From positions 1-64,000 of IMG/VR virus record IMGVR_UViG_3300043086_000064: a stretch of DNA of 64,000 bases; one strand, 5' to 3'. The translations under genes and the position numbers were made by a program. The DNA is from a virus (Duplodnaviria; Caudoviricetes). Within the stretch, counting starts at the first letter, position 1. Each line of letters opens with the position of its first letter. Under the pieces are notes generated by a model, which saw nothing but the letters and a program-made list of their open reading frames with translations, did no database searches and had not been told where the DNA came from. This document shows positions 923-64,000 of the stretch, piece after piece.

Positions 923-1412
923 GTGAGATGATAAACATTTAAGTAAAAATTACCATCTATTATCTACTCAAAACAACAGAAAGAAAATTTGAAATTTTTG
1001 ACCGCGGCAACCTTTTTGTGTCTTTAAAGATAGTACATGGCCAAAGCGTTTTTCCATATTTTTTCTAATCCTTTAGGTTCGAAAAGACGTGGAATTGACG
1101 CGGAAAATTTTAAACATGTCAAGCTGCCGATCGGTTACTTGACAAGGAATTTTTTGTTTTTGTCAAGCTGAGAAATTTTCATTTGACTTTTTGAAACGAA
1201 ATTTTTTGAATGAGTTTTTTGAAACGGTTTTTCTGAGCCGTTTGTATCGGATTGGGGAGAAATTTATATTTAGGTTTGCGATTATTAGGTTGACAATAGT
1301 GAGGCCGATCGGGCAGACACATTTATCATACTTGGAGAAAAAACGTGGAGAAGGTGTCCTAGACTCTCACAAAGGTACCCTTACTATATTCGCATAAAAA
1401 AAATGGAGGAGA

Positions 1413-2192
1413 CTAATCCTCCTCCATAAAGAACGCATTCCCGCTCTCATATTCTACACATTTAATTCCTCTAATCAAATATTCTCCATTCATCAACGTC
1501 CCATTAAACGCTCTTCTAAACGTTTCATAATTATCCTTCCTTTCCTCCTTATCTAACTTTTCCTTCTTCTCTTTCGCCGCTTCTGCACTCATCTCTCCCT
1601 CTTTAACAAGAGAATCTAAGAGAGCTTGCTGTTTCACATTCTCATCAGACCTTGAGTAATATTTATGTAACAATTCTATACATCTTTTATTCTCAGCTTC
1701 TGTAAAAGGTCTTGCCTTACCACCTCTTGATACACAAAACACATATTCTGATGTTCCAATTTTTCCTCTTTTGTTTGTTAACCCATCACCAAACAAATAA
1801 TTTCTAGCATTGCGACCTTGTTTCTCCCAAGTGTTTAAAGAAATGTTTGTGCTTGCAAAATTTTCTTCTGCGGCTCTTGATGCTTCTGCGATACTTCCAA
1901 TATGCTCTTGTTTTTCTTTAAAGAATACTGGAAGGAAGTCTAACATGATGAAATATGCGGGACTTGCTTTGCGGCTTAATGTAAGGTACATTGTGCTGCC
2001 GTAGATTCTTTTTATGTTTACGCCTACATATTTTCCGTTTTCTTTTACTCTGTCAAATTCACAATAGGAAGATAATTCGGTAAGAAACTTTGTGGTTTGT
2101 TTTCTAATTCCATTTGCTGTTGTTCTTCCTCCTTTCCATGCTGCTAATTCTTCATAGGTCATAAGACCAAAATGTAAAGTTGGTTTATCCAT
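1413..2192 (-). CDS. Putative DNA-binding protein, paralog 2 of 3
   Basis: 259-aa ORF with AGGAG RBS; EELAAWKG, LSSYCEF, RGKIG, RPFTEAE...LLHKYY motifs shared with neighbours. Confidence 0.6.
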   Translation of the reverse strand: MDKPTLHFGLMTYEELAAWKGGRTTANGIRKQTTKFLTELSSYCEFDRVKENGKYVGVNIKRIYGSTMYLTLSRKASPAYFIMLDFLPVFFKEKQEHIGSIAEASRAAEENFASTNISLNTWEKQGRNARNYLFGDGLTNKRGKIGTSEYVFCVSRGGKARPFTEAENKRCIELLHKYYSRSDENVKQQALLDSLVKEGEMSAEAAKEKKEKLDKEERKDNYETFRRAFNGTLMNGEYLIRGIKCVEYESGNAFFMEED

Positions 2193-2267
2193 ATTTTTTC
2201 TCTCCTTTCTTTACATTATTATATGAAAAATAAATGGATAAAATTAAAAATCTTATCCAAAAAAATC

Positions 2268-2324
2268 TTATCCTGTGAACTGTACGCCTTAGAATATATA
2301 TAAAACGTACAGTTCACTGGATAA
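2268..2324. repeat. Inverted repeat upstream of paralog 2
   Basis: TTATCCTGTGAACTGTACG / CGTACAGTTCACTGGATAA (19 bp, 1 mismatch) around an ATATATAT-containing spacer. Confidence 0.9.
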
Positions 2325-2390
2325 AATTTCCTAACCATGGGGCGCTTGCGCGCCGCCATGGAAACAATAGAAGAAAAAGAGAAGCATAGG

Positions 2391-2490
2391 GTGGGCGCAT
2401 AGTGAACACTCAAACGCAGCGAGCAACAGCGAGCAAGTTTGAGTGTGAACGTTGTGAACACTCGTCCGCTGAGCGGACACACACCTCAAC
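2391..2490. repeat. 100-bp exact direct repeat, copy 1 (copy 2 at 3756-3855)
   Basis: GTGGGCGCATAG...CACACACCTCAAC identical at both sites; internal hairpins CACTCAAAC/GTTTGAGTG and GTCCGC/GCGGAC. Confidence 0.95.
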
Positions 2491-2585
2491 TGTTTAGCCT
2501 TCGGCTTCACAGACAATAGAGAAATAATTAACACTTGGGCGGCGCCTATTTTGCATCTTCATGCATTAACCATCAGACAGCTAGT

Positions 2586-2640
2586 TTGTTCCTTTTTTTT
2601 TAAACCTATATATTAACAGTCTTTAAAAAAAAAGGAACAA
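2586..2640. repeat. TTGTTCC-type inverted repeat downstream of paralog 3
   Basis: TTGTTCC-T9-AAA / TTT-A9-GGAACAA is a perfect 19-bp IR; spacer begins CCTATAT. Confidence 0.9.
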
Positions 2641-61847: not shown

Positions 61848-61860
61848 ATGAACCAACAAA

Positions 61861-61898
61861 AAGGGTATAACAATGTAAAAGTTATATCCTTCTTTTGT
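61861..61898 (+). terminator. Rho-independent terminator
   Basis: AAGGGTATAAC-AATGTAAAA-GTTATATCCTT followed by CTTTTG. Confidence 0.6.
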
Positions 61899-61941
61899 AT
61901 ATATATAAGCTATGAGAATAGCTAAAGAAAGGAGACTTATT

Positions 61942-62889
61942 ATGTCTGTAACAAAAAAAGTTAATGGTACTACTTACGAATGTTTGATTCTGCCTATGAA
62001 AAATTTCCAAATTTCTCAAGGTTGCAACGGTCAATACTCCCACCAAGGCGCAAATGCTCTTGATATTTGTGGTAAAGATACTGGAATTGAAGAAACTATC
62101 GCTCCATGTAAGATGAAATTTATTACTAATGATTCTTATACAAATGGTAATGCGGTTTGGTTCCAATCTGTAAACAAAGTATTGTTTGCTGATGGCACAG
62201 TAGATTATGCTACAATGATGTTCTTGCATGACAATGATATTTCAGATATTAAAGCAGCGGCTGCTGGTGGCTATGTATGGGCACAGGGTGAAAGTTTCGG
62301 TGATGAAGGTACTGCCGGAAATGCGACAGGAAATCATTGTCACTTTGAAATTGCAAAAGGTGCTTATTCTGGAATGTACGCTAAAAATTCTCAGGGTGTC
62401 TGGCATTTGCCAAATTCCATTTCTCCTGATAAAGCGTGTGTAACAGATGGCGCTAAACTTTACAATAGTGGACAACCAACAGCTTCCGGAAATAAGATGT
62501 CTTGGAAAACTTCTAGTCAGATTGCGGGAACCTCTACGTCGTCTACTACATCAACCACAACTTCCACTTCAACTTCAACTTCTAGCTCTTCTGCTACGAA
62601 TTTGGATGTTGCTATTTTGAATAAAAAACCTACTCAGTTTGTAAGCGAAAAAGCTACGTTTACTGTAAGTGTGGCAAGTATTAAAATTCGTAAAGCTCCT
62701 TCTTTAAAAGGAACTGACACCGGAATGATTTATACTAAAGGTATGAGTGTAAATTATGATGGATATGTCAAGAATGGCGGTTACGTATGGATTTCTTGGA
62801 TTGGTTCAACTGGTGAGCGTCGTTGGATGGCCGCTGGTGAATTAAATTCTGCTGGTGCTAATACAAATCCTTATGGAACATTTAAATAG
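61942..62889 (+). CDS. Endolysin: M23-like peptidase, Ser/Thr linker, SH3b (SH3_5) cell-wall-binding domain (start revised to 61942)
   Basis: HQGANALD (H-x3/4-D) and HCHFE (HxH); IRKAPS...YDGYVKNGGYVWISW; AAGGAG RBS before MSVTK. Confidence 0.8.
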   Translation: MSVTKKVNGTTYECLILPMKNFQISQGCNGQYSHQGANALDICGKDTGIEETIAPCKMKFITNDSYTNGNAVWFQSVNKVLFADGTVDYATMMFLHDNDISDIKAAAAGGYVWAQGESFGDEGTAGNATGNHCHFEIAKGAYSGMYAKNSQGVWHLPNSISPDKACVTDGAKLYNSGQPTASGNKMSWKTSSQIAGTSTSSTTSTTTSTSTSTSSSSATNLDVAILNKKPTQFVSEKATFTVSVASIKIRKAPSLKGTDTGMIYTKGMSVNYDGYVKNGGYVWISWIGSTGERRWMAAGELNSAGANTNPYGTFK

Positions 62890-62921
62890 GAAAGGCTAAT
62901 TTAAGCCTTTCCCTTTTTTTA
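62889..62921 (+). terminator. Rho-independent terminator
   Basis: GGAAAGGCT-AATTTA-AGCCTTTCC followed by a T-run. Confidence 0.8.
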
Positions 62922-63019
62922 TTGCCTTTTTTTAAAATTTATAGTATAATTATCATGTAATTGAAATAGAGATGAAATTACAAAACAAAATAAGTAAATT
63001 TTAAAGAAAGGAAATAAGA

Positions 63020-64000
63020 ATGAGTAATAATTTATATACGAAAGATTCGATTGAAAGTTTATCTCCGCGCGACTTTACTCGCCTTCGCCCAGGTGTATAT
63101 GTTGGCTCTACGGAATATGCAACACATTTATTAGTAGAAATTGTATCAAATGCGATTGATGAATTTAAAGCGGGAAATGGTTCTCACATTGATGTAAAAA
63201 TTGAAGGAACAAAAGTTAGCGTTCAAGACAATGGACAAGGTTTCCTTATCAATGAAAAAAGAGAAGATGGTTTGACAGTTTTAGAGGCTGCGTTTAGCGT
63301 TCTTAATACGTCAGGTAAATATAAAGAAAATGGAGTATATGAAGGCGTAGCGCTTGGTTTGAACGGGATTGGCAGCAAAATAACCTGCTACTTAAGTCAC
63401 CACCTAAGAGTTCAAACATGGAGAGATGGTCAGACAGAGATTATCAATTTTGAAGAAGGATTGTTTAAAGATAGAGAAGTTAAAAATGAAAAACATGAGA
63501 GTGGAACATTGGTTGAATGGGACGCTTCAGAAGAGTTCTTCGACAATCCAACAGTGGAAATGAATAAGATTGAGGAGTTATTTAAAACTATCGTTTGTTT
63601 GTGCCCAGGATTGACAATCAATTTAGACGCCAACGGGGTCCCGCACACCTATCAATCTAAAAATGGATTGAATGATTTAGCAGATGAAATGACAAAAGGA
63701 AAAGAAATTATTAAGAATAGAATGAGCATTAACTTTAAAGAAGGTAAAAATGCTATGGATTTTATTCTTACTTATACCTCAAATTATTCTTCTACTATTG
63801 TTCCTTATGTTAATACAGGTTTGACTGAATCCGGTCCACATATTACACAAATTAAAACAACAATCACAAGAGAGTTTAATAAATTTTTTAAAGAGAAAAA
63901 ATGGTTAAAAGCAAAAGACGATAATTTGTCTGGAGATGATATTGGAGAGGGAATGTTCATTCTCTTTAACTTAACTGCTCCTGGGGTGTCTTATAATGCT
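63020..64000 (+). CDS. gyrB: Type IIA DNA topoisomerase subunit B (GyrB/ParE-like), truncated by the window end
   Basis: Read manually: RLRPGVYVGS, EIVSNAIDE, VQDNGQG, TSGKY, GLNGIG (GHKL ATPase motifs); own promoter near 62922. Confidence 0.9.
   Translation, partial: MSNNLYTKDSIESLSPRDFTRLRPGVYVGSTEYATHLLVEIVSNAIDEFKAGNGSHIDVKIEGTKVSVQDNGQGFLINEKREDGLTVLEAAFSVLNTSGKYKENGVYEGVALGLNGIGSKITCYLSHHLRVQTWRDGQTEIINFEEGLFKDREVKNEKHESGTLVEWDASEEFFDNPTVEMNKIEELFKTIVCLCPGLTINLDANGVPHTYQSKNGLNDLADEMTKGKEIIKNRMSINFKEGKNAMDFILTYTSNYSSTIVPYVNTGLTESGPHITQIKTTITREFNKFFKEKKWLKAKDDNLSGDDIGEGMFILFNLTAPGVSYNA

Follow-up and report, generated by a model that had tools for sequence, protein, structure and literature searches.

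A dispersed 19-bp element inside genes, at early promoters, and at gene-exchange junctions in one phage lineage

The first 64 kb of the viral record IMGVR_UViG_3300043086_000064 (Caudoviricetes), hereafter the window, carry on both strands many copies of a GC-rich 19-bp element made of a 9-bp head, a 5-bp spacer, and a 5-bp tail. These copies constitute a real, strongly selected, and lineage-specific network of landing sites, of a kind that is known but poorly understood. The element is probably the landing site of one double-stranded DNA-binding protein of the phage, which would regulate early promoters and coat the genome, the shuffling of genes at its copies being a by-product of homologous crossover. 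The source record is a partial IMG/VR entry, 51% complete, with roughly 20-40 kb of the genome beyond the sequenced part. We examined the full contig of 82,365 bp, of which the window is the beginning. The phage is apparently a large, non-integrating Firmicutes phage.

The initial annotation reported about 40 copies of the pattern GCGGSRMCY-N5-GYNKC on both strands, and our counts agree: there are 35 strict matches in the window and 40 in the contig (25 on the plus and 15 on the minus strand), against an expectation of 0-0.13 in simulations of the contig with Markov models of order 1, 3, and 5, and none with the reversed pattern. The fixed distance between head and tail is also genuine, since only N5 is enriched (40 matches, against 0-5 at each other length from 0 to 12). 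An iterated weight matrix identified 96 sites above 13 bits (0-1 in reversed controls), and 79 sites of at least 18 bits in the contig, 67 of them in the window; we refer to these 79 as strong sites. A matrix trained exclusively on the early region and on G001, a contig of the same species group described below, recovered 45-53 sites in the other 62 kb and none in the controls, and the site count is therefore not circular. Individual copies were placed correctly by the annotation: those at 14063 and 8705 are on the minus strand with variant tails, and that at 16004 is a strict minus-strand match. The copies are indeed densest at 4-20 kb, but genome-wide more than half of the sites are in coding sequences (CDSs).

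The element is a pseudo-dyad: read on the opposite strand, its tail is a degenerate version of its head. Positions of the head are linked (P = 3e-4 for 5-6, P = 4e-6 for 7-9), and the base preceding GCGG is mostly T or G, with A in 11% of the cases. With few exceptions, inverted pairs span 19, 33, or 57/58 bp, and the divergent orientation was never seen. Among 37 distinct pairs, one has identical arms, and positions 5, 7, and 9 are mismatched in 22, 26, and 20 pairs; the differences look like independent draws from the consensus. Tail position 18 is a T, opposite an invariant C, in 19 of the 79 strong sites. Because the arms are unmatched, recognition takes place at double-stranded DNA, and hairpins are not the general basis of the element. 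Hairpins in RNA or single-stranded DNA, serving as terminators or as signals for processing, would account for the copies at 5812 and 9080, which form terminators with a stem-loop and a U-tract, and for the self-complementarity of some other copies. Yet a separate terminator-like hairpin is found just upstream at 11023, 12365, and 17024. Given the missing arm complementarity, this explanation is largely refuted, and we find it barely credible. An Rfam scan returned tRNA only.

CDS interiors contain 39 of the 79 strong sites, in all six frames, when synonymous-codon shuffles contain 0.24. The genes with sites include those of gyrase, ligase, DnaB, primase, and RecJ. Intragenic sites use rare codons (relative adaptiveness of 0.385 vs 0.698), and 8 of the 10 sites in core genes lie in patches below the mean conservation of the gene, where they encode residues unlike those of the homologues. 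We analysed conservation at the 18 intragenic sites covered by strain-level relatives (five, with around 80-97% nucleotide identity within aligned blocks). No core base has changed at any of them. Among synonymous core positions, 0 of 52 vary among strains, against 22.1 expected from the local synonymous rates of G and C, a difference whose nominal P of 1e-14 overstates the case because positions and strains are not independent. Outside the element, GCGG varies at the background rate (49 of 113, 51.6 expected). The intragenic copies are thus individually maintained, by strong selection or by drive, and they fit the DNA-organising role that the initial annotation had offered as one of two options. 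Some of the longest gaps without sites hold genes of GIY-YIG or HNH homing endonucleases (73669-76464 in G000; 16288-21689 and 23960-30003 in G001), which is consistent with these genes being recent arrivals that lack the word.

The two strands are used about equally. Sites oriented with and against transcription number 10 and 11 in the structural region, 10 and 11 in the right arm, and 12 and 20 in the early region. Outside the early region, sites detected at low thresholds are spaced more evenly than random (coefficient of variation [CV] of 0.59, P < 2e-4). This evenness weakens at high thresholds and with the independently trained matrix and, being threshold-dependent, is suggestive only. 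Such a distribution could result from molecular drive or self-recognition, as in DNA uptake sequences (DUS) and uptake signal sequences (USS): a sequence-biased step, such as the loading of recombination, packaging, or marker rescue, would favour DNA bearing the word, which would accumulate at permissive positions without a regulatory job at each site. The balance between strands, the use of all frames, and the location at variable residues are as in DUS and USS (PMC2817400), and the USS of Haemophilus influenzae likewise has GCGG as its essential inner core (PMC3458573). The low-threshold evenness and the enrichment of junctions at sites described below also favour drive. However, it leaves unexplained the exact 24-bp spacing at promoters and the discrete 33- and 57-bp composites with unmatched arms, the consensus beyond GCGG is unlike the USS, and the evenness fades with stringency. 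To our knowledge, there is no uptake-like step for phage DNA, and we consider drive unlikely.

Each strand taken separately has a site around every 2.1 kb (CV of 0.52-0.66), and orientation alternates beyond chance (P = 0.005). This regularity would suit a strand-specific signal of replication or protection placed every ~2 kb, either Chi-like for AddAB or for the loading of a primosome or helicase. GCGG is the core of the Chi-like motifs of Bacillus subtilis and Staphylococcus aureus, and it is 1.3-2.5 times enriched across most of the wider clade. Yet strand polarity was not found, the scarcity of A before GCGG is unlike AGCGG, the plus-strand evenness is lost with the independent matrix, and such a signal does not account for a bipartite 19-bp site with a fixed promoter geometry. 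This makes a Chi-like role very unlikely.

The early promoters reveal this geometry. At nine of them, exactly 24 bp separate the end of the head from TATAAT; the distance is 27 bp at two more and 30 bp at one. Across strains, 18 of 25 distinct spacers are of 24 bp and 4 are of 27 bp, and the spacer sequences differ. The element covers about -55 to -37 at these promoters. A -35 box starting with TTG is found at none of the nine, at 5 of 10 element-free promoters (P = 0.03), and at nearly all promoters of related phages. Four further copies contain the Shine-Dalgarno sequence and adjoin an ATG. The fixed 24-bp geometry, absent from the initial annotation, points to a transcription factor. At these early sigmaA promoters, the site takes the place of an UP element and borders directly on a degenerate -35 box. 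Its protein might be a class II-type activator or a shut-off repressor; we lean slightly towards the former because the site at -55 to -37 adjoins the degenerate -35 box.

The strain-level relatives differ by gene gains, losses, and replacements, and the breakpoints fall at the element more often than expected. Between 4 and 20.4 kb, 10 of 19 boundary junctions are at most 10 bp from an element, a zone that makes up 22% of the intergenic DNA (P = 0.003), and a junction is present at 9 of 14 gene boundaries with the element and at 5 of 22 without it (Fisher P = 0.018). A DUF6718 gene is placed between two direct copies, and the 20 bp they share match the element exactly (16991-17010). Similarly, an extra gene of 141 aa in the relative L356 lies between two direct copies (7051-7068). 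The other junctions coincide with either edge of the element, head or tail, or miss it by a few bases, and often just one of their sides has an element. Junctions coincide with copies of the element, but their enrichment is confounded, since elements also mark the boundaries of transcription units, where viable junctions fall anyway.

These results bear on the proposal that the element belongs to a system for shuffling gene cassettes. The enrichment of junctions and the two insertions bounded by direct copies speak for it, and they could be read as the work of a dedicated site-specific recombinase, for which the 33-bp composite would be a core-type site: several junctions are at the tail edge (position 19/20) or the head edge, and the 14-5-14 inverted layout resembles a recombinase core. 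The recombinase itself, expected elsewhere in the genome, did not turn up. There is no match to tyrosine (PF00589) or resolvase-type (PF00239) recombinases in the contig and in the head-region contigs of the same species group (five contigs for PF00589), a negative result that covers the sequenced part only and that a dead recombinase could escape. Neither the tyrosine (PF00589) nor the large serine recombinases (PF07508) have a match in 20 relatives, nine of which are at least 90% complete. Furthermore, the offset differs between junctions, many of which have an element on just one of their sides; they fall at boundaries where viable junctions are expected anyway; and dozens of conserved sites lie within essential genes, where purifying selection acts and a recombination site would do harm. 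We hold a dedicated recombinase to be very improbable.

The element is confined to one species cluster. It is absent from about 150 loci of relatives (roughly 50-69% protein identity) and from five near-complete related genomes. Such restriction is expected if the specificity is encoded by the phage. The contig G001, located by a pattern scan, holds 15 strong sites in 31 kb. It first seemed to be a separate phage, an impression we dropped because its capsid is 92-100% identical in contigs of the samples that gave the strain-level relatives; from this co-occurrence, we infer that G001 is the head/tail portion of the species group of the window phage. Scans of metagenome and genome contigs with patterns of the 33-bp form returned only GC-rich chance matches. 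In viral contigs, G001 is the only real match, those in L023 and L026 being due to chance in GC-rich DNA. A nucleoid or transcription factor of the host (a Firmicutes), to which the phage adapted on entering that host, could also explain the restriction through a host switch, and no phage binder has been found. On the other side, the Clostridium phage Amboise has 0 strict sites, which is weak evidence against such a factor. We give a host factor only a slim chance.

GCGG is about 1.3-2.5 times over-represented in most relatives sharing this gyrase (L036-L115, L027-L034), and is not over-represented in more distant loci (L002-L021, located via the TerD-like gene). The excess, which may have a Chi-like or mutational cause, could have provided the raw material for the element. 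An excess of GCGG-N3-CCGC across the clade was considered as a homologue of the element and rejected: it does not track the family of candidate binders presented next and follows the in-frame spacings 0/3/6.

The tandem paralogues at the left end of the window, with a helix-turn-helix (HTH) and a winged-helix-like domain, are two-domain DNA-binding-like proteins according to their predicted structure, and we regard them as unproven candidate binders. Their model has a pLDDT of 90, its best winged-helix match is weak (Z of 5.9, rmsd of 3.1, 70 residues aligned), and Foldseek returned no match. The family comprises 428 representatives, with no match to a named one. A sister assembly encodes a fourth tandem paralogue just past the left end of the window (11297-12079 of L493). 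Ahead of it is a long inverted repeat centred on a TATAAT-like sequence, and another 57-bp pair of elements is at the end of that contig. An exact repeat of about 100 bp flanks the third paralogue (2391-2490 and 3756-3855), in a region that is rearranged among strains. Matches to the family in G024, G019/G020, G027, and G029 contain in-frame TAG or TGA codons, which suggests reassignment of stop codons in parts of the clade. Further candidates are winged-HTH-like open reading frames at 10044-10475, 12430-12789, and 55325-55738 and a TrmB-like one. A sigma-factor-like gene found across the clade was also considered as the binder, and rejected because the sites are unoriented and intragenic.

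In the explanation that we find probable, one sequence-specific double-stranded DNA-binding protein, encoded by the phage lineage, would recognise the element through two halves 14 bp apart, a strong one containing GCGG and a weaker one. On the inverted pairs, whose geometry is fixed (33 and 57/58 bp), at least two copies of the protein would assemble cooperatively. Because the intragenic copies of the element (about 1 per 1.2 kb) are individually maintained, this protein probably coats the entire chromosome and thereby organises, protects, or transcriptionally insulates the DNA. Since copies are located at promoter and ribosome-binding-site boundaries, they supply direct repeats of 18-20 bp for the gain and loss of accessory genes; the exchange itself would probably proceed by Sak4-type annealing or other homologous crossover, as proposed for the promoter early stem-loops (PeSLs) of T4.

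Several points weigh against this explanation. No binder is identified, and the HTH family is found in 6 of 34 relatives, a distribution that mismatches that of the element: four relatives with the family that were screened whole (G007, G020, G024, and G027) lack the element, and the paralogues appear to have inverted repeats of their own upstream. The explanation gives no reason for the selection acting on intragenic sites. The fixed spacing could result in part from the copying of promoter cassettes, and a drive process would conserve sites too. A more ambitious version is that a single, recently evolved system marks the chromosome every 1-2 kb on both strands, drives early promoters by replacing the -35 box and the UP element, and actively directs cassette exchange or discrimination between self and non-self, in a lytic phage of gut or rumen type. 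We think this rather doubtful; if true, it would be the phage equivalent of an uptake-sequence or nucleoid-marking system, and one that rewrites amino acids in gyrase, ligase, and helicase.

The genomic context includes a replication module that resembles that of SPbeta (gyrase, NAD ligase, YorF, Sak4-like, YorH, DnaB, primase, RecJ, and PolIII alpha), in which the gene of the Sak4-like annealing protein is outside the window. The nearest cultured endolysin is that of the Clostridium innocuum phage Amboise (46%), a weak hint about the host, and a megablast search of positions 1-20 kb against GenBank phages gave no match. Several independent assemblies stop at nearly the same length (82.36 kb, one at 84.5 kb), and the right end of the contig falls within the gene of DNA polymerase III alpha. 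The early region (4932-19442) has Pfam matches to ArdA-like, Tad8-like (119 aa), SprT-like, Panacea/SocA, and AAA kinase-like proteins, which are candidate counter-defence genes. A protein of 755 aa named SCP2/TerD-like by the Joint Genome Institute is encoded at 59264-61847, preceded by a tRNA-Gln (59079-59152). The positions of the elements and of the candidate binders are listed in Table 1.

Table 1. Copies and composites of the 19-bp element and candidate binder genes in the window (SD, Shine-Dalgarno sequence; distances to the -10 box are in bp)
Feature	Position	Strand	Remarks
Dispersed 19-bp pseudo-dyad	1004..63644	both	35 strict copies; 67 matrix copies (at least 18 bits)
33-bp composite	10991..11023		Two inverted elements sharing the central 5 bp; between the separate terminator hairpin and a TATAAT promoter, spacing of 24
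33-bp composite	12333..12365		24 upstream of the -10 box; promoter of the SprT-like gene
33-bp composite	15990..16022		30 from the -10 box
33-bp composite	16992..17024		24 from the -10 box; empty site where relatives carry the DUF6718 gene
33-bp composite	53596..53628		Divergent intergenic region
58-bp inverted pair	4018..4075		
57-bp inverted pair	7353..7409		Left copy has an SD and adjoins the start codon; L360 replacement junction at the right edge
57-bp inverted pair	8667..8723		Left copy is itself a 19-bp dyad; 24 from the -10 box
57-bp inverted pair	14025..14081		27 from the -10 box
57-bp inverted pair	20300..20356		Divergent early/structural boundary; 24 from the -10 box
57-bp inverted pair	49993..50049		Convergent boundary
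Self-complementary 19-bp copy	8279..8297		24 from the -10 box; L356 and L360 insertion junctions at the edge
SD-containing copy	7054..7072	+	Adjoins the ATG of the minus-strand gene 6082-7053
SD-containing copy	5211..5229	+	Adjoins the ATG of the ArdA-like gene 4932-5210
SD-bearing copies	5720; 5461		5720 likewise adjoins a start; 5461 is further from the start
Single copy	19502..19520	+	24 from the -10 box
Single copies	heads at 5812 and 9080		24 from the -10 box; also form terminator-like hairpins
Single copy	14572		27 from the -10 box
Copy inside gyrB	63626..63644	-	Variable loop, lineage-specific residues; unchanged in a 94%-identical strain
Copies in structural, lysis, and accessory genes	22105..62542		All six frames; e.g., 22123-, 26058+, 28014+, 29024+, 36411 (dyad), 39124-, 51648-, 60837-, 62524+
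Three tandem paralogues of ~250 aa	11-754, 1413-2192, 2751-3515	-	N-terminal HTH and winged-helix-like domain; unproven candidate binders

Judged by its sequence features, the network does not seem to fit the definition of any of the four phage systems closest to it: the Cluster O repeat, stoperators, SPBRE, and PeSLs. Cluster O mycobacteriophages (Corndog) lack an integrase and have a 17-bp dyad repeat in more than 30 dispersed copies, many of them intragenic and without orientation, which is presumed to bind a protein and whose function is unknown; it is mostly found away from promoters and is rarely if ever involved in indels (PMC4351075). The window element is likewise dispersed, partly intragenic, and unoriented, and no integrase was found. 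However, the Cluster O repeat is an invariant 7-3-7 dyad of different consensus, whereas the window element is a degenerate pseudo-dyad with 33- and 57-bp composites, in an unrelated sequence and host, and it is found at a fixed position of nine promoters and at indel junctions. The stoperators of Cluster A (L5 gp71, TipsytheTRex) are 13-bp sites of temperate phages, mostly intergenic and oriented with transcription (PMC9283540). They resemble the element in being one asymmetric site with many copies, at promoters and at gene starts and stops, and by analogy a bipartite reading by a two-domain protein is plausible. Unlike stoperators, the element is not oriented outside the early region and is mostly intragenic. 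No integrase family was matched in the sequenced part of the genome or in the 20 relatives.

The SPBRE of the temperate Bacillus phage SPbeta is 15 bp long, shows about ten peaks at promoters, and is bound by the integrase-fold repressor MrpR (YopR) (PMC10516654). Both phages have repeated sites at promoters and share the replication module (YorF, YorH, Sak4-like, DnaB), but here there are about 100 sites, around half of them intragenic. PF00589 was not matched in the five species-group contigs, which cover part of the genome. The PeSLs of T4-type phages have a stem-loop core and are associated with variable regions (PMC2839356). The element shares with them the composites of terminator, promoter, and Shine-Dalgarno sequence in a hyperplastic early region, and the gain or loss of genes, which probably occurs by crossover between the repeats on either side and needs no dedicated recombinase; it differs in being a non-hairpin double-stranded DNA word that is kept inside core genes too. 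The DUS/USS of Pasteurellaceae and Neisseria (PMC2817400, PMC3458573) are comparable in density (about 1 per kb), in the use of both strands and all frames, in their location at poorly conserved residues, and, for H. influenzae, in the GCGG core. Unlike them, the element is in a phage, has different flanks and a fixed promoter position, and its pairs are not matched terminator stems.

Other systems are more distant. The Chi sites of Firmicutes are polar AGCGG-like motifs of 5-8 nt, whereas the element is a 19-bp bipartite word with no polarity that is preceded by A in 11% of the cases. Repetitive extragenic palindromic (REP) sequences are extragenic palindromic hairpins, whereas the element is intragenic with unmatched arms. 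It also differs from shufflon sfx and integron att sites, as it has no single crossover point and is found inside essential genes and not only at cassette ends. The C1 repressor of phage P1 uses overlapping inverted asymmetric operators, mono- and bivalent, and in T4 the MotA box is an activator site that stands in for the -35 box; the element is like the former in its overlapping inverted layout and would be like the latter as a -35 substitute.

Dispersed protein-binding words of the Cluster O type have been described in non-temperate phages and left unexplained. To these, the present case adds direct evidence that strong selection or drive preserves the copies in essential genes, a precise promoter geometry, and strain-level evidence that the word is a swap point for accessory genes (e.g., DUF6718) near ArdA-like, Tad8-like, and Panacea genes. 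Relatives at 55-69% protein identity lack the network, so systems of this kind can evolve fast and remodel a proteome, and knowledge of the binder would reveal the benefit that a lytic phage draws from a coated genome.

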